In this document: positions 4,700 to 43,907 of the stretch, in pieces
Layout: every line of letters starts with the position of its first letter
How positions within the stretch are numbered: position 1 is the stretch's first letter
IMG/VR virus record: IMGVR_UViG_3300033074_001257
Span: 1-64,000 of that record
DNA length: 64,000 nt
Direction: 5' to 3' (one strand)
Source: a virus
Lineage: Duplodnaviria > Caudoviricetes
The notes under the pieces: model-generated
Databases searched by the model: none
What the model was told of the DNA's origin: nothing
Seen by the model: the letters and a program-made list of their open reading frames with translations, nothing else
Position numbers and translations under genes: made by a program

Positions 4700-4719
4700 T
4701 TGCAGTGTGCTGTTGAAAT

Positions 4720-4745
4720 GCCGCCCTCAACTGGGCGGTTTTTTT
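4720..4745 (+). terminator. Rho-independent terminator
   Basis: GCCGCCC-tcaact-GGGCGGT plus T tract. Confidence 0.75.
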
Positions 4746-4807
4746 GTGAGCCTTTAATTACAGATTCAAGCGTGTCACGTTCGGAAAGAAGCTTCTTGGA
4801 GACCAAT

Positions 4808-7800
4808 ATGTTTGAACAACTAAATGAAAACTCGCTGTGGACAGACGGCGCGTCGTTGCAAGCGCACACAGTTGAAAGTGCCACCCAAGCGTTCTTTTTC
4901 AACTTTTTCGCATTTCTAAGCATGTACACCATCAGCAGCAACACCATCGTGATGCGAAACTATGTCGCAAGCGAGACGCACACGAAGCTGAGTGAAATTG
5001 ACGTCACCAACCACGACACCACCGCGTCAATCAAACTGGCTGCACACTTTAAAGTCATCACCGAACAGTCGGCACAGCGCCTGCTGCGTCTTGTGGCCAA
5101 GATCAAAGCGAAACAAATCACAAGCGATGATCTTCAAGATGAGATGATCAAGAAAGTTCTCACCGAACTGCACTACGGCACGCATCTGTCGTCCCAGCCT
5201 ATCTTGAAGTCTGCACTGGACGACTTCATGGACGGCAAAATCAACCTGCCGTTCGTGGCCTACTTCTTCTTCAAGCACTGGAAGAAGTTTGATAGCGTGA
5301 ACGCTGAAATCTCAGACATGTACAAGAAAGGTCACTTCTCAACCACCTACAGCGATTTCATGACCGGTCGCCGTAAGCTGAAGCGTGGCGTTCCGCGGCA
5401 CCTGATTAAGAACACCACTCCACTGACGGTTGTCTTTGAGAACGGCGTGGTCATTGACCCATCGGTGGTAGCGACAACGCAAGCGCAAGCGGCAGCCCCA
5501 GCTCCAGCGGCAGCGCCCGTGGCAGCCCCAGCGACCCAGCCCACTCAGAGTCCGGTGGCGGCGTTCCGTTCCAATTTGCAAGCGCAAACGGCAGCGCAAA
5601 CACAGGCGGCGGCGCAAACACAAGCACATCAAACACAAGCACAAGCGCATCAAACACAAGCGCAAGCACAAGCTCAAGCAGCAGCCCAAGCGGCAGCTCA
5701 AGTTCCCGCAACTGCGCCAGCACGGCCCGCCACCAGCACCGCCAACACTGTCAACACTGTCGTCGGCACAGCCAAGCTGAAATTTAGCGATCGAACTGCA
5801 GAACAGTGGCGCAAGTTCATTTGGGACGACACCAAGCTCATCCCCGAACACATTGAACAGATTGATGAGCGTGATCTTGGGCGTGTGGTGGCTGCCGTTT
5901 ACGAACTGCTGATTGATAGGTCAAGTCGCATTCAAGAAAAATACTACAAGGCAGTTTGGGCCCTGACGCTTGATGAGAAGTCGCGTGAAGCCGTGCGGCA
6001 CTGCATCGCTTATGATTATCTGAAAGCGATCCAGTACGTTCCAGATGAATACGAAGTCAAAGGTTCGCTGAGTGAGTCCATCCTCACAGCCGACGTCGCG
6101 ACATCAGCGAACATGATTGTGACGCTCGTCGCAGTCGACCCCAATCAAGCAAAGAGTGACGAACGTCGAAGAAAATTGCGCGTCATCGCCAATGCCGTGT
6201 TCCAAACCGATAGCCCAGACGTCTGGGATCGCTACCTGAACGCTTCTTATAGCTCCAAACAGCGCACGGCAGCACTCTACCTGAAAACACTCTCTGAAAA
6301 AGACGTCAAAGAGTCGCTGATGCGCAACTATATGGACTATTACAAATCGTCAGATACACTGAAGCAAGTCAGCAACCACTTCAAGGTTGATGTCTACAAC
6401 GGTGCCATTGAAGTGATCTACGATCAAAACTACTCAAGAGAACACAAAGACGAGTTCATGCTCGTCAACTACCTGGCGTCTTACTTCAACGTCGACGTCA
6501 TATTCAGACCAACGACAGTCGCCAACATTATCGTGGGCAATTTGACGGGCCAGCGCACTGCTGCCCAGTGGGCTAACCTGATTGTCAAGGACGGCGAATT
6601 TAGCCAGGCGCTGGTTGAGCGTGAAGTTGACGCGCAAGTGAGATACGAGATCATCAGCGTCGCATTCGACTACATGTTGACTCAGATCAAAGATGCTGAA
6701 GCGGTCGCCAAACTGCTTCGCAGTGCCGAAGGCTTGTTTGACATCACACTAGGTCGGTACGGTGAGCTCGTCGACAAGATGCTGAAGAAAGCAAGTAACG
6801 GTGAGGTTGAACTTGCAATCGACATCCCCTACCCCGACGGCGTGAAGTCTAACAAAAGTGTGGTTGACACAAATCGCGTGGTTCAACTGCTGTCTGTGAT
6901 GCCGCTGTCTAAATTGTTCGTGAAAGATTCACTTGAGTCGCTTCGCAAATTGCTGAAGCATATGAGTTATTATCCTCATTTTGATTTCGTGCTCGATGAA
7001 GATAAAATGGCGACTCAGGTCACGCTGTCGGTTGCTTCTGTGGGTATGCGATATGCGCTGGCTGCACTGAAGGAAAATCTCGAAAAAAATAACGCCCTGC
7101 CCAGCGACGCGGTGATAAACTTCGATGAGAGCGTCCCTGTCGTCGACTGCGGCAACATTGAAAATAGTGCAAACAAGTTCATTTATGATACCCTGGTGAA
7201 AGTGAAATCTGTAGGTCGGTTGAAATTTGTTCTGCGGTACAGAAACAGCCGGGCTTTCACCATCACCCCAGGACAGCGCACTGCCCCAGAATATGAGATT
7301 TGGCAGGGCAGCAAGATCAATCCAGACTTCACGCCCAGCTGCTCGTATGACGAGTCAAAGTTCGCCATCATTGAGGGTTGGCGTGAATTTAACCCACACA
7401 CCACTCACTTTGATCGCGTTAAGGTGGCGGGGAGTGAAGCACTCATCCGTTCATACTTTATCAATCATGGATTCAAGACAAACGTCACAGGTCAAGACTT
7501 CATGCTTCGGCACGCGATTGATGGCTTCGCGGACGTTCACAATCTGAACTTTGCTTCGCCTAAAGTGAGTTCGTCATACGACAAGGAGATCTTGAACTAT
7601 TTGGTTGATACGGCATACGATTACCTGCTCGATCAAATACTCAACAATAAGATCAGACACTACGTCTCTCACATGTCTCGGTGTGGGACCTCACTGAACC
7701 TCATTTTCAACAGCGAGAAGTTCAAAGAATGGGGAACCATCAAGAACATGTTCGCCGTGCCTGCGACCGATCAAGTCATGTACTACACTATCCTGGCACG

Positions 7801-10321
7801 ATACTTCAAGCACACAAATCGCTTTGAGAAAGGAAAGTTCGCGCACACTTTCCTTGACTTCGTCACTGTCCTGTCACAAGACAGTCGCTTTAGTCCTTAC
7901 CTGAAAATTCAACCGAGCACCCCCTCTCAACGACCCGCTGTGACGGTTGACGTGACAAACACGACGCCGGTTATGCGAGCTTGGCTGGTGGCGATCACTG
8001 AACTTTACAGCGAGACTGTCGGTCTTTATACGGAATATGACAGCAAGACCATCGCCCTGGGCAGCGACGGCGAGCCTGTCTTGGTTGACGTCACCGAAGA
8101 GACTTTGCAGTTCCAAGATAGGCCAAACTTTAGGATGTACAATTCGCCCCTTGAGATTGAAAATCACGTACTGGCAAACCTCAAGGATGACGAAATCCCA
8201 CTCGTTGCCAAAGCACTTGAGGGCTGGTCATCGAAATCTGAAAATTTCGAATACCGTTTCTGGGCTGAAGCGAAAAGAATCCGAGGGCGTGAAGCGCGTC
8301 TGAATTTTATTCGCGTCATCCTGGCGACGCTGTCCATGCAAAGTGATGTGAAGGCGATGGCAACTCTGGTCTTGATGACCATCGCCTTTGAGGGTGACGA
8401 GGTGCTGTCTGACCTCATCAAAGCCGCGTACGATAAGCAAGCTAAGGTCATCAGTTCAAGCAGTGACGCGCCAGAGAAAGTCTTTTCAATCATTGATATC
8501 CTGAGCAACTACAGTTATGATAGAGTGGCGAAGATCAAGCTGGTGTTTGGTTTTGCGCCCAAAGACCGAATTTACTCACAAGACCTTATCGGTGAATTGA
8601 TCGAGCACAACGTGTACCCAACCACCGACCCGTTCATGGAAGCTCAAGCCAAAGCGTACATCAAGGAATTTGATACCGACACTTTGCTCAAGTGGAACAA
8701 GTTCTATACCTTCATGCACTTGCCTGAAGTTGAGGACATTATTGTTCAGGGCATTAAAGACCGACACCCTGCGGCGATTCGAATAGTCAATACTTCTTGG
8801 TACCTTAACACTGCTGCACAAGTCAAACCGACCAAAAAGTTCATTGAGGCTTGTCTGGAAGCGGGCATGACCGTGAAGAACAGCCAAGTGGGTTATTCGA
8901 GCGCATACAATCTCAAGAACTATCCCAAGAACCTGCTTGAGAGCATCTTCTATTCGGGGCGCACCATTGAAAGCAGCGACGAAAAGTTTCTTTCGTACTA
9001 TGAGTCGGTGCGCGTAAACTTCTGGCTGAACAGCAATGTAGATGACAGCCATAAAGTGATTGACGTTGACTTGATTCGTGAAGAGCCCAATCGTGCTAGC
9101 GTGAACATCGCTGAGAGAAACTCGCACATCAGCAAGATGACGTCTTTCGTTTACGCACTGGGCCATTCGACAAAAGACGAACAGTTGAAGCTGCTTGACT
9201 ACTGCCAGATTGACGCGAAGAATGTTCGTGAGGCGTTCTTTAAGCCTGAGCTCCAAATGATCTCAGCAGTGGCCAAGAACGCAAGCAACCTGCACCAGAA
9301 GACCATGGAGTGGATCTTGAACGTGCTGTCTAGCTTCTTGCACAGCGGACCGGGCTCAAGCCAAATGCGGCGCACTGCCTGGAATGAGTTTTTCCCGAAA
9401 CTGAACGATACTTTGAAGCAGTTTTCGGACGCGGGCGGCGACTTCAAGCTCAAGAAGACAAACAAGGTGCCAGACCTCTTCAGTGCCAACCAAGCGTTTT
9501 TGGTTCGTCAACAAATCGACGAGCAGTCCACGAAATACGGACTGGACATCGGTGACGTGGATAACGAACTGCTTCAAGTGGGCATGGCTTTGAATGGTGT
9601 TGAATTCACTGCCAACTTTGACAACGTCAAGTCCATGAGTGACCTGGCGTCGATTGTGGACGCTGGGCAAACTGCCATCACACTGAAGGAACCCTTTGTC
9701 AGTCGCTTGCCGATTGAAGATCTGCCCACGCGAATCAAGCGCGGTCGCGATATGACCATGGGCGGCTTCTCAGGGCGTCACACCAACACCGTGCCGCTTG
9801 TTCTTGAGTCGTATGAGGTCAACAAGCCGGGCAACAAAGAACGCGTCGAGGCGTTCCGACAATCCGTGGGCGGTGAATACGCGCGTAATTTCTACCACTC
9901 TTGTGGAACGCTTGCAGCCAGTTTCATTCTGCGCTACGGATTCAAGAACGTGACAGATCCTAAGCTCGTTGTGGGTAAAATGCTGGGGGACGGTCTGTAC
10001 GTGGCTAAACATGTAGACAAGACCATCCAGTACGCCACCAACCGCACCAACTACACGGATGTCGGTGACGTGGGCTACATGATCGTCTTTGATGTTGTGT
10101 TTGGCAAAGTTAGCAATAACCCGAACGACATTCCAAAGAGCGAATACGACACGATTATGGCGCCAGGTGTCGGCTCACTTTCAGACATCCGCACGCCAGA
10201 ATGGTGCCTGCGTCGCGCGGAAGATCAAGCCGTGTATGTGGCAGCGCACAAAGTTCGAGTCACACACATCAGCGAGCTTGAAAAAATGGCCGCTGAAAAT
10301 AACGTTCCCTGGGTTGAGTGA
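4808..10321 (+). CDS. Giant (~1,837 aa) protein with a C-terminal PARP-like (H-Y-E) ADP-ribosyltransferase domain
   Basis: C-terminal FYHSC...ILRYGF...GKMLGDGLYVA...K..QY...GYMIVFDVVFG...PEW parallels the PARP catalytic signature; the ORF-track start at 4700 runs through a terminator, so ATG 4808 is preferred. Confidence 0.8.
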   Translation: MFEQLNENSLWTDGASLQAHTVESATQAFFFNFFAFLSMYTISSNTIVMRNYVASETHTKLSEIDVTNHDTTASIKLAAHFKVITEQSAQRLLRLVAKIKAKQITSDDLQDEMIKKVLTELHYGTHLSSQPILKSALDDFMDGKINLPFVAYFFFKHWKKFDSVNAEISDMYKKGHFSTTYSDFMTGRRKLKRGVPRHLIKNTTPLTVVFENGVVIDPSVVATTQAQAAAPAPAAAPVAAPATQPTQSPVAAFRSNLQAQTAAQTQAAAQTQAHQTQAQAHQTQAQAQAQAAAQAAAQVPATAPARPATSTANTVNTVVGTAKLKFSDRTAEQWRKFIWDDTKLIPEHIEQIDERDLGRVVAAVYELLIDRSSRIQEKYYKAVWALTLDEKSREAVRHCIAYDYLKAIQYVPDEYEVKGSLSESILTADVATSANMIVTLVAVDPNQAKSDERRRKLRVIANAVFQTDSPDVWDRYLNASYSSKQRTAALYLKTLSEKDVKESLMRNYMDYYKSSDTLKQVSNHFKVDVYNGAIEVIYDQNYSREHKDEFMLVNYLASYFNVDVIFRPTTVANIIVGNLTGQRTAAQWANLIVKDGEFSQALVEREVDAQVRYEIISVAFDYMLTQIKDAEAVAKLLRSAEGLFDITLGRYGELVDKMLKKASNGEVELAIDIPYPDGVKSNKSVVDTNRVVQLLSVMPLSKLFVKDSLESLRKLLKHMSYYPHFDFVLDEDKMATQVTLSVASVGMRYALAALKENLEKNNALPSDAVINFDESVPVVDCGNIENSANKFIYDTLVKVKSVGRLKFVLRYRNSRAFTITPGQRTAPEYEIWQGSKINPDFTPSCSYDESKFAIIEGWREFNPHTTHFDRVKVAGSEALIRSYFINHGFKTNVTGQDFMLRHAIDGFADVHNLNFASPKVSSSYDKEILNYLVDTAYDYLLDQILNNKIRHYVSHMSRCGTSLNLIFNSEKFKEWGTIKNMFAVPATDQVMYYTILARYFKHTNRFEKGKFAHTFLDFVTVLSQDSRFSPYLKIQPSTPSQRPAVTVDVTNTTPVMRAWLVAITELYSETVGLYTEYDSKTIALGSDGEPVLVDVTEETLQFQDRPNFRMYNSPLEIENHVLANLKDDEIPLVAKALEGWSSKSENFEYRFWAEAKRIRGREARLNFIRVILATLSMQSDVKAMATLVLMTIAFEGDEVLSDLIKAAYDKQAKVISSSSDAPEKVFSIIDILSNYSYDRVAKIKLVFGFAPKDRIYSQDLIGELIEHNVYPTTDPFMEAQAKAYIKEFDTDTLLKWNKFYTFMHLPEVEDIIVQGIKDRHPAAIRIVNTSWYLNTAAQVKPTKKFIEACLEAGMTVKNSQVGYSSAYNLKNYPKNLLESIFYSGRTIESSDEKFLSYYESVRVNFWLNSNVDDSHKVIDVDLIREEPNRASVNIAERNSHISKMTSFVYALGHSTKDEQLKLLDYCQIDAKNVREAFFKPELQMISAVAKNASNLHQKTMEWILNVLSSFLHSGPGSSQMRRTAWNEFFPKLNDTLKQFSDAGGDFKLKKTNKVPDLFSANQAFLVRQQIDEQSTKYGLDIGDVDNELLQVGMALNGVEFTANFDNVKSMSDLASIVDAGQTAITLKEPFVSRLPIEDLPTRIKRGRDMTMGGFSGRHTNTVPLVLESYEVNKPGNKERVEAFRQSVGGEYARNFYHSCGTLAASFILRYGFKNVTDPKLVVGKMLGDGLYVAKHVDKTIQYATNRTNYTDVGDVGYMIVFDVVFGKVSNNPNDIPKSEYDTIMAPGVGSLSDIRTPEWCLRRAEDQAVYVAAHKVRVTHISELEKMAAENNVPWVE
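5480..5760 (+). repeat. Ala/Gln/Pro/Thr low-complexity linker with short tandem repeats inside the giant ART gene
   Basis: AAAPAPAAAPVAAP and QTQAHQTQAQAHQTQAQAQAQAAAQAAAQ, encoded by repeated caagca/caaaca units. Confidence 0.8.
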
Positions 10322-10766: not shown

Positions 10767-10989
10767 GACTGGGTTTTGTGAAATCGGCTTTAAATGCGCG
10801 AGATCGCGTTCTAAGCCGCCCAGTGGCACTGCGCCACCATCTCGTGCTGAAGTGTGTCAAATTCGCCACGAGATTGCCAGTAAACGCCATTCAGTGACAA
10901 CACTCAATGCACTTTGTTAGCGTGAACTGAAATCGATGTCTTTTTTCGTGGCTTAACTATACCGTAGTCAACAATCGACAGGTTACATC

Positions 10990-21271: not shown

Positions 21272-21460
21272 ATGTTCACGAACGAACTCAACAAAACCCT
21301 CTATGAGTCACACGGTAGGGGGTTTGGTCTTGTCGCAGAACAATTGCGCAAACTTCTAGCCAGCGAGAAGTCAAAGCTCACCGGCGACCAGTACCTCAAC
21401 TGTATTTCAATCATCGAGTTTCTGAATGAGGTTGATGGGTTGTTGAGTGAGAAGAAGTGA
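21272..21460 (+). CDS. Hypothetical protein
   Basis: 62-aa ORF coupled to the upstream gene. Confidence 0.5.
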   Translation: MFTNELNKTLYESHGRGFGLVAEQLRKLLASEKSKLTGDQYLNCISIIEFLNEVDGLLSEKK

Positions 21461-21467
21461 CGCAAAC

Positions 21468-21492
21468 GAGCCGCTACCACAGCGGCTTTTTT
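21468..21492 (+). terminator. Rho-independent terminator
   Basis: AGCCGCT-accac-AGCGGCT plus T tract. Confidence 0.7.
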
Positions 21493-21530
21493 GTGGCTGT
21501 AAAATATGAGAAAGCGCCAAGGTAGATCTC

Positions 21531-21878
21531 ATGTACGTCAAGAACGACCGATACCTCATTGAGACTGATGATGGGTATTGTCACTTTCGCGGAATGAAAA
21601 AAGACACCGCCCATCAAACGATTGACATTGCTTACACGGTGGGCGACGTGGTGGGCAGCATTGAATCAACTTGCGACCATAAGCACTACATCACAAAGAC
21701 CGACAGCATCCCCGCCGATCGCGTGGCTGTAGGCGATGTTTTGTACGGCGGTGCAAACACCCAAGGCGAAGTCAAAGTAACCGCTGTCGCGCTAAAAAGC
21801 GGCCTCGTCGACGTGTTTGACGTGGTTGACGTGTTCCCACGCCGATCGTTCATGGCCAACGGAATCAAGACATCAAAT
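21531..21878 (+). other. Split intein C-fragment IntC2
   Basis: YLIETDDGYCHFRG start, TxxH block B, ends S-N|C. Confidence 0.9.
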
Positions 21879-22985
21879 TGTGTCTACTTGGACGAATTTG
21901 CTTTCGTTGAGAACGCGGACGAATTTTACGCTAGCACTTACCCGACAATCTCAAGTTCTGACAAGACAAAACTAATCATCACGAGCACACCCAACGGCTT
22001 GAATCTGTTCTACAAGATCTTCAGTGAAGCTACCCGCGGACTGAATGCGTTCAAACCCTACCACATCAAGTGGCAAGAGCACCCGCGGCGCGATCCTGCA
22101 ATCAACCCCCAGTGGGAGATTGACACTCGCGCAAACATCGGCGCACAGCGATTTCGTGTTGAGTATGACTGTGAGTTCCTGGGCAGCTCAAGGACACTGA
22201 TAAGCGGTGAAGCACTGGCTAAGCTCACAGCCCAAAACCCGACCCGCACTGAGGGCGACGTCTACAGTGAGTTTGAAGCCCCACAAGAAGGTCGACGGTA
22301 TGTTCTGATCGTGGATTCAAGCAACGGAGTGGGCTTAGACTACACGGTTTGCAACGTCATCGACATCACCGAAACACCTTACAAGCAAGTGGCAATCTTC
22401 CGCGATGACAAAACCCCACCACAAGCGGCTGCCATCACGGTGGACCGTTTGTCGCGTCGCTACAATGAAGCACTGGTTGTGGTTGAGAACAATCACGCAA
22501 GCGGAGCACTGATCTTAGACACGCTGTGGTTCACATTCGAGAATGAGAACATCCTGTTCACGAACGTCAACCGCGGCGAGGCAGTTCTTGATGGGCAAGC
22601 ACGAAAACAGCAGATGGGTGTCACCACCACTACCAAAACGAAGAGCAAAGGCTGCTCGCGCCTAAAAGATCTCATTGAACACAATTTGCTGTTAATCAAC
22701 GACACGAACACCATTGACGAGCTGATGACCTTTTCACTTGTGAACGGTCGTTATCAAGCTGAGCGCGGCAAGCACGACGACACGTCCATGACACTGGTTC
22801 TGTTCGCTTGGCTCACGGGCGAGGACTACTTTGTCGATCTATATGGGGTGGACGTAAATAAGATTGTTCTTAAAGATTTGAGTGAAGTGAATTTTTTTGG
22901 ATTCGTCGATGACTACACAGGACGGTCGGTGAACACGTCTTACTTGCTGCCCGCCTTAAGTAATCGAACTGACTTGATTAAGTAA
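21531..22985 (+). CDS. gp17: Terminase large subunit, C-terminal fragment, preceded by a split-intein C-fragment (IntC2, 116 aa)
   Basis: Residues 1-116 are HINT-like (block B STCDH, block F VDVFDV, terminal TSN). They are followed by C+1 Cys of CVYLDEFAF (Walker B), IITSTPNG, and nuclease motifs VDSSNGVG.DYT, VENN, HDD. No Walker A. Confidence 0.93.
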   Translation: MYVKNDRYLIETDDGYCHFRGMKKDTAHQTIDIAYTVGDVVGSIESTCDHKHYITKTDSIPADRVAVGDVLYGGANTQGEVKVTAVALKSGLVDVFDVVDVFPRRSFMANGIKTSNCVYLDEFAFVENADEFYASTYPTISSSDKTKLIITSTPNGLNLFYKIFSEATRGLNAFKPYHIKWQEHPRRDPAINPQWEIDTRANIGAQRFRVEYDCEFLGSSRTLISGEALAKLTAQNPTRTEGDVYSEFEAPQEGRRYVLIVDSSNGVGLDYTVCNVIDITETPYKQVAIFRDDKTPPQAAAITVDRLSRRYNEALVVVENNHASGALILDTLWFTFENENILFTNVNRGEAVLDGQARKQQMGVTTTTKTKSKGCSRLKDLIEHNLLLINDTNTIDELMTFSLVNGRYQAERGKHDDTSMTLVLFAWLTGEDYFVDLYGVDVNKIVLKDLSEVNFFGFVDDYTGRSVNTSYLLPALSNRTDLIK

Positions 22986-23020: not shown

Positions 23021-24757
23021 ATGGCTTTTGGCGTACTGACACAAGAAAAGGACTACCAAAGTTCCGTGGCGAGTCCTGAGGGCAGTGCCGGCGGTATCGC
23101 GGGAACTTTCACTTGGGGACCGATCGGCGTGCCCCGACTGATTTCATCTGTGAGTGAGCTTGAAAAATCCTTTGGCAAGCCCACCGACGCAAACTTCGCC
23201 GATTGGTTTAGCGCAAGCGACTTCCTGGCATCGTCGAATGCCCTGTACGTGGTTCGCGTATTGCACAGCGGCAGCAACGACGCGAACGCAACTTCAACGG
23301 GTGACTATGACGCTGAGCGCATGATCCGCAGCGACACCCACTTCAACGTCCTGCAAGCAACCGATGCACTTGACCAGGAGTTCTATGCACGTTACCCAGG
23401 TGAGCTGGGCAACAGTCTGCTGGTTAGCATCGCCGACCAAAGCAACTTCAGCACCTGGGCTTACCGGAACCTGTTTGACCGCGCGCCAAGCTCAACCAAC
23501 TACGCGAAGCAAGTGTTCACTAACGCTGGCTCAACCGAAACCCCAAACGACGAGCTGTGCATCGTGGTGGTTGATGCCCTGGGTGAAATCACCGGCGCAC
23601 CGGGTACGGTACTTGAAACATTCGCAAACCTCTCAAAATGCCTCGACGCCAAGAGCGACCTGGGCGTCAACAACTATTACGTCTCCACGCTGAACGCTCG
23701 CTCGTCTTACATCTATGCCGGCGTTCCGCTGGGCGGCACCCTGGTGTCGAACACAAACGGCGACAAAGCCGCGTGGGGCACAGCAGCCAAGGCCGGTGTT
23801 TCTTTCGCGCCCATCAACGCCCAGTACACAGTCACCCTGTCGGGCGGCGTTACCGATTCGATCGGCACCGCAAGCGATTATGCTGACGCTTACACTATTC
23901 TGTGTGGGCTTGAGGACAATCGCCTGAACATCATCATCGCCGGCGCTTGTGGTTCCGATGCGCACCGACTGACTGTTCTGCAAGCAATTGAAGCGGGCTG
24001 TCTGAAAAGCGAGAAGCGCGTGGCGTTCTGCTCACCGAAGATCAGTGACTTCCTGCACACCACGCCCGCTGAAATTGAACAAGCCATTCTGGACACTTGG
24101 ACCGCGACCACCACCAAAACAAACGTCATGTCGATGGACAACAACGCGAAACTGGTCTATGACAAGTACAACAGCGTATACCGCATTATCCCGTGCAACG
24201 CTTCTGTCGCAGGCGCATGGGCGCGAACTCACGCCAACTACGGCCCGTGGAAATCCGCTGCCGGTTATGTTCGCGGTAACCTGACGAACGTGGTCAAGCT
24301 CATGTACTCGCCTGACCGCCTCGCCATGGAAACCTTCCAGAAGAAAGGCATCAACAACATCATCACCGATGATGGCGCAGTGTACCTGATGGGCGACAAG
24401 ACGCTGCAACAGCGTGAAAGTCCCTTCACCTACCTGGGCGCTCGCTTCTTGACCATCTCAATCAAGAACCTGACTCGCGACTCAGCCAAATATACCCTGT
24501 TTGAATCAAACGACCAGCGCACCCGAAACAACTTCGTGAGCGGCGTCACTCCGCTGCTTGAAAACATTCAAACCCAGGGCGGCTTGCAAGCGTTTCGCGT
24601 AGTGTGTGACGGATCAAACAACGACGCTTACACAGTCTCAACCGGCGGCTTCGTGTGTGACATCGCATTCAAGCCCTACCAGTCCATTCAATGGATCATG
24701 CTGAAATACAGCGTCTTGGGTGCCAACGAGTCATTCGACGAAGTCCTGGGTAACTAA
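23021..24757 (+). CDS. gp18: Tail sheath protein gp18
   Basis: GIAGTFTWGP, FGKPTD, ARYPGELGNSL, PWKSAAG..RG, GDKT, FESND..TR. Confidence 0.95.
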   Translation: MAFGVLTQEKDYQSSVASPEGSAGGIAGTFTWGPIGVPRLISSVSELEKSFGKPTDANFADWFSASDFLASSNALYVVRVLHSGSNDANATSTGDYDAERMIRSDTHFNVLQATDALDQEFYARYPGELGNSLLVSIADQSNFSTWAYRNLFDRAPSSTNYAKQVFTNAGSTETPNDELCIVVVDALGEITGAPGTVLETFANLSKCLDAKSDLGVNNYYVSTLNARSSYIYAGVPLGGTLVSNTNGDKAAWGTAAKAGVSFAPINAQYTVTLSGGVTDSIGTASDYADAYTILCGLEDNRLNIIIAGACGSDAHRLTVLQAIEAGCLKSEKRVAFCSPKISDFLHTTPAEIEQAILDTWTATTTKTNVMSMDNNAKLVYDKYNSVYRIIPCNASVAGAWARTHANYGPWKSAAGYVRGNLTNVVKLMYSPDRLAMETFQKKGINNIITDDGAVYLMGDKTLQQRESPFTYLGARFLTISIKNLTRDSAKYTLFESNDQRTRNNFVSGVTPLLENIQTQGGLQAFRVVCDGSNNDAYTVSTGGFVCDIAFKPYQSIQWIMLKYSVLGANESFDEVLGN

Positions 24758-24776
24758 CAAAAAAGGAGGGCACTAA

Positions 24777-25415
24777 ATGTCCAACAATGCTGACGTAGGT
24801 AAATTCTTGAACCAGCTTTCAGGTGGAGGATTTCGCCCAAACCGCTATGAGGTGAATTTCACCTTTCCAAAGGCGATTGACGAAATCACCAAGTACACTC
24901 CAAATGAGCAGATTTATCCTGAAGGCGCCGACGCCACCCGAGCCAAGGCCAACAACATCACGAACCTGCAAGCCATCAAAGACCACGTCTCTTTCATGGC
25001 CAAGGGCACTAAAATTCCATCGATGCAAATCGGTGAGATTGAACTGCCGTACAAAGGTCGCAAGCTGAAAGTGAACGGCGACGTGACTCTGGATGATTGG
25101 GAAGTTACGCTGATCATGGATTCAAACGGCAAGTCACGCGGCTTGTTTGAATTCTGGATGGAAGCGATGCTGGGTGTTTACACAAACACGACTTCTCGTT
25201 CGCTCATGAACCCCGCGAACTACATGGGCACTGCCACAGTTCGGGCACTCGGTCGTGATGATGAGCTTGAAGCCATCTATGTCCTGTCAGACATCTATCC
25301 GAAAAACGTCGGTGAAATTGCCCTGGCGTGGGACAGCAACGATCAGGTCGCTGAAGTGAACGTGACTTTCGCAGTCAACAACGTCCGCAGCCGCTACACT
25401 AAGCCGCTGGCCTAA
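24777..25415 (+). CDS. gp19: Tail tube protein gp19
   Basis: GGFRPNRYEV, IPSMQIGEIELPYKGR.LKV.GD..LDDW, PKNVGEI.L.WDSND. Confidence 0.95.
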   Translation: MSNNADVGKFLNQLSGGGFRPNRYEVNFTFPKAIDEITKYTPNEQIYPEGADATRAKANNITNLQAIKDHVSFMAKGTKIPSMQIGEIELPYKGRKLKVNGDVTLDDWEVTLIMDSNGKSRGLFEFWMEAMLGVYTNTTSRSLMNPANYMGTATVRALGRDDELEAIYVLSDIYPKNVGEIALAWDSNDQVAEVNVTFAVNNVRSRYTKPLA

Positions 25416-25435: not shown

Positions 25436-25460
25436 AAGCCTCGCAACAGCGGGGCTTTTT
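25436..25460 (+). terminator. Rho-independent terminator after gp19
   Basis: AAGCCTCGC-aaca-GCGGGGCTT plus T tract. Confidence 0.75.
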
Positions 25461-25475
25461 GTTGGGAGTCTATTC

Positions 25476-25814
25476 GTGCGCAAGTTTACAGAAATGCAGA
25501 TCGTTGACGATTACGAGGTTTTGACCGATAAAGGTTTCGTTGACGTGCAAGCTATCATGACAACTGTCCCCTATATCGTTCACGTGCTGGTGACAGACGC
25601 CGGTCACTTTTTGTACGCAGCAGACGATCACTTGTTGATTGACGCAAACGGCGACACTGTAGCAGTCAAAGACGCCTTGAACAAAACGATCAAGGTGAAC
25701 GGCGGCACCGCAACTGTCACACATGTAATTGAGACTGCCGAACGTGTGCCCATGTACGATTTGCAGATCGCTGCACCGCACACGTTCTACACGAACGAAA
25801 TCTTGAGCCACAAC
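25476..25814 (+). other. Split intein C-fragment IntC1
   Basis: YEVLTDKGF start, ADDH block B variant, MYDLQI block F, SHN|T terminus. Confidence 0.9.
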
Positions 25815-26225
25815 ACTACCACAGTGGCGGGCTACCTGCTTCACTTGGCCATGTTCAATGAAGACTATTCCATCGCCATCCTAGCCAACAAGAAGTCGCA
25901 AGCAACCGAAGTCCTAGATCGCATCAAGACGATTTATGAATGCCTGCCCTGGTGGCTGCAAATTGGCGTTCGCCGATGGAACGTGGGGGACATTTTGCTG
26001 GACGGGGGTAAGAAGGGTTCGAAGATCTCAACCTCAGCAACCAAGGGCGGCGGCATTCGGGGTAAGTCGGTCAACTGCTTGACTGGAACCGCGAGAGTGC
26101 GCGTATACGACACGTTCACCGGCGTGGTGGAGGACTTGTGCCTGAGTGACCTGTACAACCGCCTTAGAGCGCACGAGATTGCCAGCAATCGCCCTTCACA
26201 GGACACAACCCAGGCGATAAAATGA
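25476..26225 (+). CDS. gp17: Terminase large subunit middle fragment: IntC1 (113 aa) - 87-aa ATPase extein - IntN2 (49 aa)
   Basis: Residues 1-113 are HINT-like and end YTNEILSHN|T. The extein TTTVAGYLL...AILANK...EVLDRIK...WN.G...IRGKSVN matches T4 gp17 between Walker A and Walker B. It is followed by CLTGTARVRVYD...DLYNRL, an intein block A. Confidence 0.93.
   Translation: MRKFTEMQIVDDYEVLTDKGFVDVQAIMTTVPYIVHVLVTDAGHFLYAADDHLLIDANGDTVAVKDALNKTIKVNGGTATVTHVIETAERVPMYDLQIAAPHTFYTNEILSHNTTTVAGYLLHLAMFNEDYSIAILANKKSQATEVLDRIKTIYECLPWWLQIGVRRWNVGDILLDGGKKGSKISTSATKGGGIRGKSVNCLTGTARVRVYDTFTGVVEDLCLSDLYNRLRAHEIASNRPSQDTTQAIK
26076..26225 (+). other. Short split intein N-fragment IntN2
   Basis: Starts with Cys1 (CLTGTARV) and ends ~30 residues later at LYNRL plus a tail, as in atypically split TerL inteins. 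Confidence 0.88.
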
Positions 26226-36334: not shown

Positions 36335-37406
36335 TTCAATTCTAAACAACAGTGCGGTCACTGTTTATCTCGGACACAGCAGTGGCGGCACTTTTGACAC
36401 CCACAACATCAAGTATGATGCGCCCATCAGCAACGTCACGAAGTCAATTGCCGTAGACATCAATCGCTACACGGCAAACGACATTCTGAACACTTACCCA
36501 AGTGAAAAGTCCTATTACCTGTCTGGCGATGACATCTACATTTGCTTGTCCAACAACGGCGGCAGCCCATCAACAGAAGCTCCGCACTCAAAATCAAAGC
36601 TGAACATCAAGACAGACGATGGATACGTTTGGCGCTACCTGTGCAGTGTGTACGCAAGAAGCGAATTGAAGTATCTGCGGCTGCCGCGAAGCACTGGAAC
36701 TGTACCCATCAAAACCCCCATCGCTTCACTCGTCGCGCAACCGAGCACCCTGAACTTCACAAACACACTGCGACACGTGGTTTATAGTCAATACGGCCGC
36801 AATGCCACATTCGTATATGACGAGGGCAGCGACGGCAAAGTCAAGAACATCACAGTCGCTTTGGGCGGCAGCGATTATCGAAACCGTGATGTTTTTCTGA
36901 TTAGCGACAACATGGAAACCCCACACACCCTGCCCACTTTCACCACAAGTCTCAATGAAGGTTCGATTGACGCAACGCTGCTAAACGGCGGCAGCGGCTT
37001 GAGTGAGTGCAAGATCCACGTGGTGGGTGACGGCACCGGCGCTTCTGTCACTGCCACGCTGGTCGGCAGTTCAGTTGGCACCATCAACGTCACGCCCGGC
37101 AGCGGCTACACGTGGTTCAAGTTGGTGCCGGCACCGTCCATCAACTCATTTGCCACCCACGTCATCACGGAACCCAAGAACGGAATCGGGTTTAATATCA
37201 TCGACGATGTGAAGCCACTGAAGCTATTGTTCACTGTATTCCTTGATAAAGTCACAGACGGCGACATCTTGAACTTTGCCGCAATCGGCAACAAGCGCAA
37301 GAACGACAGTGAGAACCCAGAGATTTATAGCGTGGCGTGGTTTGATGATGTGGTGCTAGATGCACAGTCACAGAACCAACTCAAAATCATCATTTCAGGA
37401 GAGTAA
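36315..37406 (+). CDS. gp8: Baseplate wedge subunit gp8
   Basis: YY...DIYICLSNNGG.PST..P, TDDGYVWRYL, Q.NQLKIII. Confidence 0.8.
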   Translation: MERILIDSILNNSAVTVYLGHSSGGTFDTHNIKYDAPISNVTKSIAVDINRYTANDILNTYPSEKSYYLSGDDIYICLSNNGGSPSTEAPHSKSKLNIKTDDGYVWRYLCSVYARSELKYLRLPRSTGTVPIKTPIASLVAQPSTLNFTNTLRHVVYSQYGRNATFVYDEGSDGKVKNITVALGGSDYRNRDVFLISDNMETPHTLPTFTTSLNEGSIDATLLNGGSGLSECKIHVVGDGTGASVTATLVGSSVGTINVTPGSGYTWFKLVPAPSINSFATHVITEPKNGIGFNIIDDVKPLKLLFTVFLDKVTDGDILNFAAIGNKRKNDSENPEIYSVAWFDDVVLDAQSQNQLKIIISGE

Positions 37407-37407
37407 C

Positions 37408-40400
37408 GTGGAATTCAATAGCGCACCCTACTTCGACGATCATGATTTCACGAAGAACTACAAGAAAATTCTGTTCAAGGCGGGTGCCGCAATCCAGGCG
37501 CGTGAGCTCAACCAGATCCAGTCCATCTTTCAAAGTGAGATTGGCACGTTCGCCGACCACATGTTCAAGAACGGTTCGAAGATTTCAAACTGCCGCACCG
37601 CATTCACGCGAAAGTCTTACGTTCGCGTTGAAGCCAACGACATTGACGGCAACGCGATCATTGAACCCCAGGGCATCATTCGCGTGTTTGGCGTGACGTC
37701 AAAGGTTGAAGCCACCTACAGTGGATTTGCACGCGCAAGCGACAGCGACCCTGACACCCTGTTCGTGCAGTACACTAAGGCGGGCGGCGACAACGGCGAC
37801 GTCAAGACGTTCTTGCACGGTGAGCATCTGCAAATTTGTGATGAGTTTGGTAACATCCTGTACACCTGGACAGTTCGCTGCCCAACTTGCGTCAATTCAA
37901 CGTCCGTGGGTGAAATTTCGCCCACAGGCGAGACCATGTTCTACACGATTGACGAGGGCGTGATTTACTACAACCAGATGTTCATTGCGGTCAAGCGTCA
38001 AGAGATCATCATCACCAAATACATGACGTTTGATGCTAACAACATTCCACTTGAGCCCCGTAGTTTTAAAGTGGGTCTTGATTTCATCGACAGTGTCGTG
38101 ACGGTGGCCCAGGACGAGTCGCTGTACGACAACTCACTCGGGTGGCCCAACGAGGGCGCACCGGGCGCCGACAGGTATTTCGTTGAACTGAAGCTCGTGC
38201 AGCGTTCATACGACGACGATGACGGTGAGCGTTTTATCCTGCTGGCCAAAGTCCAGCCCAACTACCGAGTGACGTTTTCACGAGAAGATGTTGAGTACGG
38301 CAACATCATGCGCGAGATGGCACGACGAACGTACGAGACCAATGGAAACTTCACGGTGGCACCTTTTACGGCGACGTTCTTAGAAGCGCGTAAACGCCAC
38401 GAGAGTGACAGTCTCGGGTATATGCTGAACGGACGTGAAGATCAGATCGTCGCCGAAGTCAATCCAGGTATCGCTTACGTTAGCGGATACCGCGTCAGTG
38501 AGAGCGATAAAGTCGCCATCATGATTGACAAAGCACGCGACACCGCAAAGCGCCGACACCAAACCACGCGACTGATGCCGTTTCGCTATATTGAGGTGGA
38601 TGTTGTAAGCAACGACTTGTTGGTCAGTGGCGCTGCCAGCAACGACATCCTAGATCAAACGCTGCTGACCGCCTACGACAATTACGACACGGCCACCAAC
38701 CAGCCCAGCGGCAACGTGGTGGGCACGCTTAAGGTGATCGACCAGCAGCGGTTAAACAGCAATCGCTTCGCCCTGTACCTGTATGAAATCAACATGAACG
38801 CCGGCAAGCAGATCAGCGACATTCGCGGCGTCAAGACTTCAAATAATCGCTTCGTGGCAAAAGCGATCTTGACCGACGGCAAGTGTGTTCTGAACAACGC
38901 CGACAAAGACAGCCTGCTTTATAGCATGGGCAGTGATCTCGTGGTGAAGTCACAGCGTTCAATCGACGACAGCACGCGCGGCAGCATCCAAGTCCAACTG
39001 CGGCGGAAGTACAAAGGCACAGCAGACGCTGCCGGCGTGATCACATTCACAAGCACGCCCCTTGAATCATTCCAAGCGCACAACGACAGCAACAACTTCC
39101 TGAACGTGGACGGCGTCACAGTCGCACTCACACCGTCGCAAATCAGTGTCGTGGACAACACACTGATGATCACCGGCTTGACTCCGCACGCGACTGTCGT
39201 CTATCACGCCACGGTTGAAAAGTACAACCAGACGGAAAAGACCAAAACGCTGGTCACGTCCACAGTGACATTCCCATACGACGACACCAAGAACATCGGT
39301 GACGCCATTAACTTGCAAAAGGCTGACGTGTTCAAAATCAAGTCAATTAGCTTGATTGAAGACAACAATGTGAACTTTGTTCCGATTGATGTGATGGATC
39401 AGTTCAAGCACGTCAGAGGCGACACGCCTTTCTATTACGGTGTGGACACTTTGCAGCGCGTGAAAACGCACGGACCGCTCACTGGAAGCTTTTCACTGCG
39501 GGTGACGTTTGACTACTTCGACCACAGCGGCGCCCAGGGCTATTTCACGATCGACAGCTACATGAGTTTGGTTGAACAAAACATCATCACCTACAGCGAA
39601 CTCATGGAATACGTCATTTTCCAAAATGACCAGTTTAAGGCGGACGTGACTTTCGTTGACTTTAGGCCCCTCTACATCAACGGACAATTTACGTCTGTTA
39701 GCGTTCCGCTCCAAGGCAGCTCGTTCGTCAGTGACATCGAATACTACTTGGGTCGCGCTGACCTCATGCAAATCACGAAAGACCAGAAGATCACAGTGAA
39801 GCGTGGCGTGCCGGCAATCAATCCGACGCCGCCGGTGGTAGATGAGGGCGCGATGGCGCTTTATGAGATCTACTTGGGTGCCTTCACTTTTAGCGCCGCA
39901 AACAGCGTCCGGACGAAGTTTATCGACAACCGCCGCTTCACCATGAAGCAGATTGCCGCGTTTGATAACCGCATCAGCAAACTTGAATATTACACAGCAC
40001 TGAACGCCCTTGAAAGCGACACTGTCAACATGTCCATCACAGACGAGAATGGCCTAAATCGGTACAAGAACGGATTCATCGTTGATGGGTTCAAGAACTT
40101 CCAAGCCTGTGACATCACCTACAGCGAATATGCCTCTTGCATCGACCGCGAGCGCGGTGAAATGCGACCGCCGTTTGCCATGTACCACCAGCCCATGGCA
40201 CTAAACGCCCAAAAGTCACAAAACATTCGGGTGTTTGGTGGCATCGCTTTGGGCGATTACGATGAGGTTGAATTCAGCGGCAACCCCTACGCCACAAAGA
40301 CAGTGAGCATCAACCCATACCTCGTTCCTGTTCGCAAGGGCACTCTCGTGCTAACACCCAACGTTGACACTTGGAGCGACACCCAGAAGCTGCCGCACAT

Positions 40401-43400
40401 TGTTTCAAACATCGACGCGGGTGTCGATGCCCTGCGGCGCGTAGCCAACACGCAAAACCTGATGCAGAGCGATTGGTCACAGTGGGTTGACGTCAACACG
40501 ACCACGCTACGCGAGGACACTACCGGCAAGGATGAGGTTTCTGACACTCGTGTCCTGGGCAACAAAAACTCCATCGTAACCACAACGTCCGTCACGTCGC
40601 AATCGCGTTCACGAACCACAACTACCATTGACTCGCGCACAGAAAAGTTCAGTGTGGACGACGTGGTGAAAGACGTGAAGATGATCCCCTATATGCGTGA
40701 GGCAGTGATTCGCTTTGCAGCCACGCACATGAAACCGCGATCGCAAGTCCACGCATTTTTCGATGGCGTCAATGTCGATCAATACTGCCGCCCGCTGGCA
40801 CAAGTTCCAAGCGGTGACCCAAGGTTGGCCATTGTCGGTTTGTCGCCGCTTGTCGTTGACGATAACGGTGAAGTCGTGGGCGAGTTCCATTTGCCCAACG
40901 GCGTGTTCTTCACCGGCGATCGCAAGTTCGTACTGATCGACAGTGAAAGTTTAACCGACGACACCAGCGCACACACGACATATGCCGAATCAGTTTACTT
41001 TGGCGGCGGCATTGCGCAAACAAAACAAAGTTCAACCCTGAACATCGTGACGCCGCTTGCGGTTCAGACGACTTACACAGACAACCGCACCGTGACCAAA
41101 GTCACCCGTGAACAAACCGTGGCGCTGCCGGTTACAGTGGTGATGCCGCCCGCTGCTGAAGTCAAAGCCGCACCCGTTGCGCCGCCACCCGCGCCCGTTC
41201 CTGCGACGGTGGTTGTTCCAGTACCGCCCCCGCCCGCACAAGATCCACAAGCCCCGCTGTGGGCTAACCTGGGTCCGTCGCAGAAGAAATACGAGAACGG
41301 CAGATGGGGAGTTTACTTCAACGGCGACTTCACGATGAGCGAACGCGAGTTCAAGTCACTTGAAGAAGGTGAATTCGACGCCTATGTTCAAACAAACGGC
41401 GAAGCGTTCTACAATCTGCGGTTTGGTTACTTCATCGCCGGTCGCGAAGATACCCAAAACGGTCGAGTGCGACGCAACAAGGTCGGTGACGATACTTGGT
41501 CGGTTAAAATCTCAGGCCCGCGACGGAACATGTACACTTATATCTCAGGCGCACCCACCCCAACTGCCGATTGGCTTGATGTGATCCAAAACGGCGCCAG
41601 CTGTCGCATCAAGCAAGCAGGTTCACCGTCTGAGAACTTCAGCACTTGGTATGAGAGCGGTCGCAAGGTGAACAACGCTTTCGCAAACATGGTACGCGAG
41701 GGCAACGCGCCGTTCTGGGTCTGGATCCAGCCTGACTTGTTGACAATGTCCGTCAACCTTAGCAACGGGTTCCGCGGACTCCGCTCAAGTGACCCGCTGG
41801 CACAAGCCTTCAAAGTAGACGAGTCGTGTTTCGTCACGCGAATTGATCTGTATTTCGCGTCGGTTGATACTGTCACGGGCGATAACGTGTGGGTTGAGAT
41901 TCGCGACATGGTGAACGGCTACCCGAGCAACAACGCACTTGCACGCAAAGTCTACAGCCCAAATATCCTGGCGAACTCGGTGAGCACAGACGGACGCACT
42001 GCATTCCCTGTGGTCTTTGACATCCCCGTCTTTGTCGACAAATCAAAATCGTATTGCTTTGTGGTGGGCGGCCACAGTCCAGATACCAGACTCTTCGTGT
42101 CGCGCCTGGGCGATAAGATCTTGGGCGGCAACGGCAAAGTGGTTGAGGAACCGCCCCTGTTGTGGACGTCGTTTCGCTCACTGAACGGCGAGACTTGGAC
42201 AGCCGAACAACTTGAATTCATCAAGCACACCCTGTACCAAGCACACTTCAAGTCGTTGACCACGAAGTTCACTTTTGAGAACGCAGGAACAGACGACGTT
42301 CTGCTGCCAGAAGATCCGATTGAATTTGAGCTTGGGACAAGTAAGGTTCGCGTGACCATTCCAGACCATGGGCTCAAAGTCAACGACACGTTCAAACTGA
42401 GTGTGTGTGACCGCCTGTCGTTCAATGTTCAGAACACCAACGACACGCCGCCACAGATCGGTCACATCTTCAAGACAGTACACGGCAACGGCACAGTTCA
42501 CACCGTTGAGCGCGTGGGCGTGAGCGGCGTCTATAAGATCACACTCACGAACGTAGTGGGCACGATTAACGCCGGCACCGCGTACCAGTGCGATGCCACA
42601 TACCGTGACCTGAACGACGACTTGCTTGACGTGCTGAACATCAACAAACCGCGGACGCTGCTTCTGGGTGAATCGCTGGGCACGGTCACGACATCCATCT
42701 ACGACAGTCTGTTGACCGGTGAGAAGATTGGCGGCGCCACGCTGGACAAGTTCAACACCACGCACCAAGTGAAATGGGTGGACAGTCCAGACTCGGTTAT
42801 CGTTGAAGTGGACTACACATTCAACGACGCCGCAGCACCCAACAAGGTGGGCGGTAAAGTGACCCGCGTGAAGGACGTGGCCCGCAAATACGACACATTC
42901 AACGTCTCGTGCGAGCACCTGGCTTACAACACGACGTCGGCTTTGACCATGGTCGGCTACAATGCCGCAACCGTGCAAGCGACAGCGCCACAGCCGATCT
43001 CACTCAACACAAACCACAACCTGCCGGCACCCAACGTCGTGTACAGCAACGGCGGTGAAGTGGCAGCGATCGGCACCAACAAGTCGCTCACCGTCACGAT
43101 GGAGTTTGCGTCGCAATCCAACCTGCTTTCGCCGGTAATCAATTGCGACACCGTATCCGCGACGCTGGTGTCAAATCGCTGCTATCCTTTCACGCCAGAC
43201 AAGATGAACGTCGCACCCAACGCTGCCAACCGCTTTGTTCCGCAAAGCGCAAACAACGCAAGCGGCAACCACAAATACTTCACGAACGACGTTCTGCTGA
43301 ACAACCCCGCAAGCGACCTCAAAATCTATTGCGACGTGTACAAAGATGTTGATGCTGACTTTGACATCTACGTGAAGGTCGCTGCGGCCGGTGATTTGAA

Positions 43401-43611
43401 CTACAGCAGCAAACCGTGGATCAAGCTGCCCACCAACAAAATCAACAGCAGGCACTTGAATGACTTCAACGAGTACACACTGTCGCTGAACAGTGCAAGC
43501 GGATACACGCCCATCGAATTCAACTGGTTCAAGGTCAAGTTCGTGAGCCACGCACTGAATTCAAGCAAACCCGTCATTGTCAAGAACCTGAGGTGTGTTG
43601 CGGTGACCTGA
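37408..43611 (+). CDS. Large VrlC/DUF4815-like virion structural protein (~2,067 aa)
   Basis: PYFDD...NY.KILFKAG..IQARELNQIQSI, GAPGADRY, RRTYETNGNF, NRYKNGFIVDGF, DPLAQAF; GTG start. Confidence 0.85.
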   Translation: MEFNSAPYFDDHDFTKNYKKILFKAGAAIQARELNQIQSIFQSEIGTFADHMFKNGSKISNCRTAFTRKSYVRVEANDIDGNAIIEPQGIIRVFGVTSKVEATYSGFARASDSDPDTLFVQYTKAGGDNGDVKTFLHGEHLQICDEFGNILYTWTVRCPTCVNSTSVGEISPTGETMFYTIDEGVIYYNQMFIAVKRQEIIITKYMTFDANNIPLEPRSFKVGLDFIDSVVTVAQDESLYDNSLGWPNEGAPGADRYFVELKLVQRSYDDDDGERFILLAKVQPNYRVTFSREDVEYGNIMREMARRTYETNGNFTVAPFTATFLEARKRHESDSLGYMLNGREDQIVAEVNPGIAYVSGYRVSESDKVAIMIDKARDTAKRRHQTTRLMPFRYIEVDVVSNDLLVSGAASNDILDQTLLTAYDNYDTATNQPSGNVVGTLKVIDQQRLNSNRFALYLYEINMNAGKQISDIRGVKTSNNRFVAKAILTDGKCVLNNADKDSLLYSMGSDLVVKSQRSIDDSTRGSIQVQLRRKYKGTADAAGVITFTSTPLESFQAHNDSNNFLNVDGVTVALTPSQISVVDNTLMITGLTPHATVVYHATVEKYNQTEKTKTLVTSTVTFPYDDTKNIGDAINLQKADVFKIKSISLIEDNNVNFVPIDVMDQFKHVRGDTPFYYGVDTLQRVKTHGPLTGSFSLRVTFDYFDHSGAQGYFTIDSYMSLVEQNIITYSELMEYVIFQNDQFKADVTFVDFRPLYINGQFTSVSVPLQGSSFVSDIEYYLGRADLMQITKDQKITVKRGVPAINPTPPVVDEGAMALYEIYLGAFTFSAANSVRTKFIDNRRFTMKQIAAFDNRISKLEYYTALNALESDTVNMSITDENGLNRYKNGFIVDGFKNFQACDITYSEYASCIDRERGEMRPPFAMYHQPMALNAQKSQNIRVFGGIALGDYDEVEFSGNPYATKTVSINPYLVPVRKGTLVLTPNVDTWSDTQKLPHIVSNIDAGVDALRRVANTQNLMQSDWSQWVDVNTTTLREDTTGKDEVSDTRVLGNKNSIVTTTSVTSQSRSRTTTTIDSRTEKFSVDDVVKDVKMIPYMREAVIRFAATHMKPRSQVHAFFDGVNVDQYCRPLAQVPSGDPRLAIVGLSPLVVDDNGEVVGEFHLPNGVFFTGDRKFVLIDSESLTDDTSAHTTYAESVYFGGGIAQTKQSSTLNIVTPLAVQTTYTDNRTVTKVTREQTVALPVTVVMPPAAEVKAAPVAPPPAPVPATVVVPVPPPPAQDPQAPLWANLGPSQKKYENGRWGVYFNGDFTMSEREFKSLEEGEFDAYVQTNGEAFYNLRFGYFIAGREDTQNGRVRRNKVGDDTWSVKISGPRRNMYTYISGAPTPTADWLDVIQNGASCRIKQAGSPSENFSTWYESGRKVNNAFANMVREGNAPFWVWIQPDLLTMSVNLSNGFRGLRSSDPLAQAFKVDESCFVTRIDLYFASVDTVTGDNVWVEIRDMVNGYPSNNALARKVYSPNILANSVSTDGRTAFPVVFDIPVFVDKSKSYCFVVGGHSPDTRLFVSRLGDKILGGNGKVVEEPPLLWTSFRSLNGETWTAEQLEFIKHTLYQAHFKSLTTKFTFENAGTDDVLLPEDPIEFELGTSKVRVTIPDHGLKVNDTFKLSVCDRLSFNVQNTNDTPPQIGHIFKTVHGNGTVHTVERVGVSGVYKITLTNVVGTINAGTAYQCDATYRDLNDDLLDVLNINKPRTLLLGESLGTVTTSIYDSLLTGEKIGGATLDKFNTTHQVKWVDSPDSVIVEVDYTFNDAAAPNKVGGKVTRVKDVARKYDTFNVSCEHLAYNTTSALTMVGYNAATVQATAPQPISLNTNHNLPAPNVVYSNGGEVAAIGTNKSLTVTMEFASQSNLLSPVINCDTVSATLVSNRCYPFTPDKMNVAPNAANRFVPQSANNASGNHKYFTNDVLLNNPASDLKIYCDVYKDVDADFDIYVKVAAAGDLNYSSKPWIKLPTNKINSRHLNDFNEYTLSLNSASGYTPIEFNWFKVKFVSHALNSSKPVIVKNLRCVAVT

Positions 43612-43907
43612 TATCCACAGCACAAGCCAGCAACTTACAACAGGGTGACAGATGTTGCCCTTTTGTTTGGCTGTGCTTGCAATTGCCCAAAGCCAATCTC
43701 ACGCGCACAGCGGCGCATCAAAGCGAATTGTGGTAACAATGCACCACCGACGACAGTGATGCGCCTTAAACGCCACGAGATTGCCAGCAATCTACCCTGA
43801 GCACGCTCACGTGGCGTGTGTTTTCACCCAGCAGCAGCGCGACTGCTCAAAAACGCTGTCTCAAGGGTGCTAAACTACCTCACACAATTGAAGGGTAGAG
43901 GTTTCAC

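Follow-up and report, generated by a model that had tools for sequence, protein, structure and literature searches.

The window analysed here is a stretch of 64,000 nucleotides at the start of an IMG/VR virus record of 85,404 bp whose CheckV completeness is 41%. On its + strand, at positions 25476-26225, lies an ORF with a GTG start that encodes 249 aa in three parts: IntC1, a segment of the terminase TerL, and IntN2. We refer to its product as the middle piece, and to the product of a second ORF (21531-22985), which carries IntC2 and the C-terminal portion of TerL, as the C piece. An earlier note had read the middle piece as a permuted IntC-target-IntN polypeptide, and this topology was borne out, with all three parts found and an extein of 87 aa; every motif quoted there (ADDH vs TCDH, and SHN|T vs TSN|C) is found in the sequence exactly as given. 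The features of the locus are as follows.

21468..21530, + strand: hairpin and ribosome-binding site of the C piece; a terminator-like hairpin with a T run (21468-21488), similar to that of the middle piece, and an AAGG ribosome-binding site
21531..21878, + strand: IntC2, 116 aa, C-terminal part of a second, apparently unrelated, atypically split intein
21879..22985, + strand: C-extein, with Cys+1, Walker B, the remaining ATPase and the TerL nuclease domain (Terminase_6N 96-213 and Terminase_6C)
23021..25415, + strand: tail sheath and tail tube genes (Pfam sheath domains, T4 gp19), between the C piece and the middle piece
25436..25468, + strand: hairpin and ribosome-binding site of the middle piece; a terminator-like hairpin with a T run (25436-25457), and GGGAG 7 nt upstream of the GTG
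25476..25814, + strand: IntC1, residues 1-113, C-terminal part of the atypically split intein that interrupts Walker A (GK|T)
25815..26075, + strand: extein 2, a TerL ATPase segment of exactly 87 aa (residues 114-200)
26076..26171, + strand: IntN2 core, 32 aa from Cys201, predicted beta-hairpin and helix
26172..26225, + strand: ORF tail, 17 non-conserved aa plus the stop codon

IntC1 contains the block B motif A-D-D-H at residues 49-52 and ends in SHN, followed by Thr114. Extein 2 extends from just past the Walker A lysine to just short of Walker B; it corresponds to positions 11-97 of Pfam Terminase_6N and to residues 167-248 of T4 gp17, and shows 60% identity to residues 97-182 of the Xanthomonas phage X1 TerL. 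IntN2 occupies residues 201-249, and its first residue, Cys201, is nearly invariant across the family alignment. In the C piece, IntC2 (T-C-D-H at residues 47-50, C-terminal TSN, then Cys117) is followed by an extein that continues from Terminase_6N position 96 through the nuclease domain and is 46% identical to residues 177-529 of the X1 TerL.

Projected onto the X1 and T4 proteins, the first break falls between the Walker A Lys and Thr (GK|T) and the second directly ahead of the hydrophobic run of Walker B (SVN|C). The motif positions follow the numbering of T4 gp17. When the inteins are removed a TerL of normal length results, and the second junction has neither a missing nor an extra residue. 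In these alignments the exteins join seamlessly onto a T4-type TerL.

The order in the window is C piece, sheath, tube, middle piece, and the N piece is not among them. As the tail sheath and tail tube genes separate the C piece from the middle piece, the order of the terL pieces is scrambled. No endonuclease gene is present at either of the two terL breaks in the window. With their own hairpins and ribosome-binding sites, the middle piece and the C piece each look like a separate cistron. The window also contains two very long ORFs on the + strand, at 4700-10321 (1873 aa) and 37360-43611 (2083 aa).

The N-extein was absent from the 85-kb record when searched by tblastn with the X1 TerL, and also when an HMM of 67 N-exteins was run at maximum sensitivity and with no filters against all six frames of the 85 kb; scans of the record for P-loop motifs likewise gave no piece 1. 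The Walker A lysine has to be supplied by piece 1, which is therefore expected in the portion of the genome outside the sequenced record. A 62-aa ORF at 21272-21460 was considered as a tail of IntN1 and rejected, as it has no P-loop, Cys1 pattern or PHROG match.

Three other features overlap the tail of the middle ORF, namely a copy of a dispersed 19-mer, a promoter-like site (26195-26223) and the ATG of the next gene; residues 236-249 have an AF2 pLDDT under 50. The 19-mer copy at 26172-26190 recurs without mismatch at 43774-43792, in the intergenic region after the 2083-aa ORF (chance expectation 0.02), with a longer match that begins at 26160 and 43762; a third copy with 2 mismatches (10867-10885) is located in another intergenic gap. 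The last 17 codons of the ORF show zero nucleotide changes relative to the related metagenome contig L089. The tail looks like constrained DNA that is read through as protein, outside the intein.

Fold and lineage of the two inteins

The whole middle piece was modelled with AF2 from a 34-row alignment (mean pLDDT 77). IntC1 in this model resembles VidaL (6vgv; Z 14.1, rmsd 2.0, 106 residues aligned to chain residues 31-142) and Cat (6dsl_B; Z 13.7, 112/118 aligned). For IntC2, modelled from the first 135 residues of the C piece (pLDDT 84.2), the best structural match is the Cat C fragment (6dsl_B; Z 12.8, rmsd 1.6, 104/118 aligned). Both IntC parts are predicted by these models to fold as HINT domains that lack the first 20-30 residues. 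Alignment of the two models to whole inteins starts at about residue 20-31, so both inteins are of the atypically split kind: the IntN is short, and blocks B, F and G lie on the long IntC. The single-chain AF2 model of IntN2 has strands at 207-212 and 218-222 and a helix at 223-237, with moderate confidence (pLDDT 57-72).

Relatives with contiguous inteins bear out the break point. L007 and L009 encode a contiguous mini-intein at the Walker A site that is homologous to IntC1 over the full length of the latter, and has a linker where the window intein is cut. At the second site, the contiguous intein of L047 carries a large insert where the window intein is split.

The nucleophiles are in place, with Cys201 at position 1 of IntN2 and Thr114 and Cys117 as the +1 residues of intein 1 and intein 2, respectively. 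In block B of IntC1, His52 is accompanied by Ala49, which replaces the usual Thr in all 34 aligned sequences; the terminal SHN is invariant in the family. In block B of IntC2 T47 and H50 are both invariant, and its TSN terminus retains the Asn and has no penultimate His. Inteins without a penultimate His exist.

In a maximum likelihood tree of 43 IntC domains, the 29 domains from site 1 (Walker A) form one group (support 98/96). Domains from site 2 (ahead of Walker B) and site 3 (after the QEF motif) intermix, and the window IntC2 is found on a long branch among them. BLASTP between IntC1 and IntC2 gave no similarity (E 0.25). The short IntN peptide also separates clearly: the window IntN2 scores 51.0 bits on the IntN2 family model vs 1.6 bits on the IntN1 model, among the widest margins observed. 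The strong divergence of the two inteins that the earlier note had described is upheld by these three results.

The site-3 IntC of L105 matches the Cat C fragment with an E value of 7.6e-23, while IntC1 matches CatC at E 0.017 over its full length and IntC2 gives no sequence match. On this basis the AceL, GOS and Cat TerL inteins are site-3 inteins (QEF.|CEF). Inteins 1 and 2 of the window represent different lineages, neither of them of the AceL/GOS/Cat-TerL type. As far as our literature search reached, the Walker A-site and pre-Walker B-site types are without biochemical characterisation. The window IntN2 shares 14/32 residues with the site-3 IntN of L128, and by tree path the window IntC2 is nearest to the site-3 domains of L128 and L159. 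There is a weak hint that one intein lineage may have moved between insertion sites.

Distribution and selection

The arrangement recurs. A word-indexed search gave 33 clusters (90% identity), and 31 others among them have, like the window, a Cys-initiated IntN after the extein. The IntC-extein-IntN layout with invariant catalytic residues is retained in 32 of the 34 aligned proteins, and for this reason it is not a product of chance. An exhaustive HMMER search yielded 169 clusters (50% identity, E<=1e-30); among the best 150 of them, at least 85 begin with IntC1.

The cultured Salicola phage SCTP-2 has a complete genome of 440 kb with exactly three TerL matches, more than 170 kb apart. These are an N piece (ending at the P-loop and followed by an IntN1 of ~40 aa), a middle piece with the layout of the window, and a C piece. 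As the genome has only these three TerL pieces, a viable phage lives on such a layout. N pieces of the same kind as that of SCTP-2 were found in 17 other loci or proteins, and the IntN1 of 17 relatives begins with Cys. In the C piece of SCTP-2 (L086:1417-3543), IntC2 ends in Gln, not Asn, and a further contiguous intein follows after a short extein; the SCTP-2 IntN2 has a tail of ~60 aa with a block-B-like motif.

Among the IMG/VR and metagenome loci every stage was seen, from intein-free genes or genes with contiguous inteins to scattered pieces, and two-piece terL genes are also present. Colinear three-piece genes are found in L100 and L103, with a GIY-YIG or HNH domain fused to IntN2 or free-standing at the break. 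In L104 (3940-9792) TerL is encoded in four colinear pieces, two of them middle pieces of the IntC-extein-IntN type, and has three atypically split inteins; endonuclease genes are located at two of the three breaks, and a GIY-YIG domain is fused to one IntN. Scattered pieces characterize L092-L095, SCTP-2 and the window. An IntN2 fused in frame to an HNH or GIY-YIG domain is encoded in L100:1947-2945 and L103:9980-11638 and in the proteins P0028, P0032 and P0033. Such fusions look like an intermediate between a nuclease-bearing contiguous intein and a bare split intein.

The position of the second break varies among relatives: it falls at one of several adjacent points around Walker B, or at the third site after the QEF motif. 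Further insertion points are seen in P0115 and P0170, with one IntN that begins right after the Walker B Asp-Glu; in P0115 two inteins are only six extein residues apart (the Walker B motif). The intein-free TerL of L010, L045, L063 and others already has a Cys at the +1 position of site 2 (N|C-I-L-L-D-E).

For an estimate of selection, the window was compared with contig L089, which has 91% DNA identity over 20 kb and the same gene order. The dN/dS ratio is 0.02 for IntC1, 0.01 for extein 2, 0.06 for the C-extein, 0.22 for IntC2 and 0.82 for the IntN2 core (32 codons). By these ratios the terminase pieces are under purifying selection, with intein 1 constrained as strongly as the enzyme itself. 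Intein 2 has a dN of 0.07-0.08 in both halves vs 0.013 for intein 1, and its catalytic blocks are kept; this faster divergence fits either a looser constraint or co-evolution of the pair. Cys222 of the window IntN2 and Cys17 of IntC2 are replaced by Tyr and Arg in L089. These two residues could be a co-varying contact or a disulfide.

Pairing of the intein halves

We consider it likely that the ORF at 25476-26225 encodes the middle of a TerL that is made as at least three proteins and rebuilt by two trans-splicings, and that its two intein halves are non-cognate and most likely complement each other too poorly to cyclise the 87-residue segment. Piece 1 would comprise the N-terminal ~96 residues of TerL, up to the Walker A lysine, followed by an IntN1 of ~30 aa. 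This IntN1 would bind IntC1 at the N-terminus of the middle piece, so that GK is joined to T114. At the other end, IntN2 at the C-terminus of the middle piece would bind the IntC2 of the 21531-22985 product, and N200 would be joined to the Cys preceding Walker B. We infer both the splicing itself and the order of the two reactions. Points that count against this reading are the absence of piece 1 from the record, which leaves the trio incomplete here, the lack of a penultimate His in IntC2 and the Ala in block B of IntC1.

The earlier note had argued that mis-pairing would be harmful, and this logic is sound: IntN2 acting on its own IntC1 in cis would release a cyclic 87-mer, and IntN1 acting on IntC2 would delete the middle of the ATPase. 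The two halves on the middle chain are non-cognate because they derive from different intein lineages. An IntN2/IntC1 hybrid would carry Cys1 and Thr+1, the nucleophile pair of intein 1. Since such a hybrid keeps the chemistry of intein 1, only fragment recognition would bar cyclisation of the 87-mer.

The peptides of the IntN1 and IntN2 families (IntN1 being taken from the relatives) align without gaps over about 32 residues and follow one common pattern, with a Cys, a hairpin with a T/S-G-E turn and a short helix that closes on an aromatic residue. Each peptide scores at least 14 bits higher on the model of its own family, with margins somewhat inflated by the inclusion of the scored sequences in the models, and cross-family scores reach up to 41 bits. 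The IntN of GOS-TerL is reported in a review to be exchangeable for that of AceL-TerL, a swap within one site family (PMC11766414). As the IntN pattern is common and such a swap has been reported, divergence is not proof of insulation. Functional orthogonality of inteins 1 and 2 is nevertheless likely, as argued by the difference in lineage, the strong selection and the viability of SCTP-2. Electrostatic steering was rejected as the basis of specificity, as both IntC parts are acidic (net charge -9 for IntC1 and -3 for IntC2) and the window IntN2 is neutral (0).

A reading that we regard as unlikely is that the inteins are imperfectly orthogonal, with mis-pairing limited by kinetics and the small amount of protein lost as cyclic or deleted products tolerated. 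IntC1, which leaves the ribosome ~90 residues ahead of IntN2, could by then have captured free IntN1, and stoichiometry or fast cognate association could supply the remaining bias; all pieces belong to clusters of late structural genes, and each piece is preceded by a ribosome-binding site. The gap-free alignment of the IntN families, their single pattern and the cross-family scores are in line with this reading, as are the high local concentration of IntN2 near IntC1 in cis and the acceptance of the AceL-TerL IntN by the GOS-TerL IntC (PMC11766414). However, that cross-reaction was reported for close homologues at one insertion site and not across lineages, the two IntC halves of the window are unrelated in sequence, and its IntN2, at 1.6 bits, is among the least IntN1-like of its family.

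Two further explanations seem very improbable to us. If the pieces were decaying remnants, with packaging performed by an intact terL in the unsequenced 59% of the genome, the limited completeness of the record (about 41%) and the failure to find piece 1 on it would be accounted for. Such decay is difficult to reconcile with dN/dS values of 0.01-0.06 on the exteins and 0.02 on IntC1, with catalytic residues that are all retained across 32 clusters, with a ribosome-binding site ahead of each piece, and with the complete SCTP-2 genome, which has only three pieces. A comparably slim chance is given to a cassette that makes a cyclic or cleaved 87-residue ATPase fragment with its own regulatory role, for which the topology and the workable Cys1/Thr+1 pair of the hybrid can be cited. 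Against it, the intein halves are non-cognate, the segment lacks the Walker A lysine and Walker B and has no evident activity, and the same extein is an ordinary part of a contiguous TerL in most relatives. The earlier note had raised a cyclic by-product or a regulatory sink, and nothing in our analysis speaks in favour of either.

Returning to the reading of a TerL rebuilt from non-cognate pieces, we lean, somewhat more tentatively, towards a generalization: T4-type phages such as those of the window, SCTP-2 and L104 would carry sets of 2-3 mutually non-reacting, atypically split inteins in one protein, tuned by selection against cyclisation and exon skipping, with specificity residing in the IntN of ~30 residues. 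A natural protein whose essential function rests on two atypically split inteins on one chain amounts to an evolutionary test of orthogonality. As exemplified by SCTP-2, a viable phage can have its packaging motor encoded in dispersed pieces that are not in order, and gene callers and annotators miss such scattered terminase pieces.

Comparison with known systems

Split inteins are workhorses of protein engineering. The joining of three segments calls for two pairs free of cross-reaction, and the supply of such pairs is stated in recent work to be limiting (PMC12707363). It is plausible that the window provides a ready-made orthogonal pair for three-part ligation, as the earlier note had suggested. 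Its IntN parts are short enough for peptide synthesis and, if the interpretation is true, such a set of inteins would supply orthogonal ligation tags of peptide size and offer a natural setting in which to study the split-intein recognition code. In the literature covered by our search, mainly outside subscription journals, we found no description of a natural three-piece, tandem split-intein or IntC-extein-IntN protein.

The closest known inteins are AceL-TerL and GOS-TerL, with Cat-TerL (PDB 6DSL) as their consensus; they are atypically split and belong to metagenomic terminases of the T4 type (PMC2677866; PMC11766414). Like the inteins of the window they reside in a gp17-type TerL, combine an IntN of ~25-37 aa with an IntC of more than 100 aa that contains block B, and share the same fold. 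They differ in their location at the third insertion site, in a gene described as broken in two, whereas that of the window is in three pieces.

Similarly, the fractured genes of Dassa, London, Stoddard, Schueler-Furman and Pietrokovski (2009) were each broken in two, including a gp17 terminase with an unusually long C part (PMC2677866). As in the window, a phage enzyme gene is broken by a split intein, and the colinear order with a GIY-YIG or HNH endonuclease gene or domain at the break is matched by the relatives L104, L103 and L100. In contrast to these fractured genes, the window has two breaks, no endonuclease gene at either, and pieces that are out of order.

Contiguous terminase inteins in the P-loop (K|T), described for Ackermannviridae-like phages and for mycobacteriophage TerL1-a (PMC5050341), are inserted, like intein 1, between Lys and Thr of Walker A. 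Those are single-chain, cis-splicing inteins, whereas the first ~30 residues of intein 1 of the window would be on another protein.

The placement of IntC, target and IntN on one chain is common to the window and to SICLOPPS. In SICLOPPS the two halves are cognate, whereas those of the window are not: IntC1 falls in the site-1 clade, IntN2 scores 1.6 vs 51.0 bits on the two IntN models, and the partner IntC2 is encoded separately at 21531-21878. The nearest counterparts in topology are the IntC-insert-IntN donors made in the laboratory for tandem trans-splicing or 'protein transposition' (PMC12707363; PMC11185735), which have the same middle topology and the same need for two non-cross-reacting pairs. 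These donors are engineered from chosen orthogonal pairs, in one case mixing an atypically and a canonically split intein, whereas the arrangement in the window is natural and both of its inteins are atypically split.
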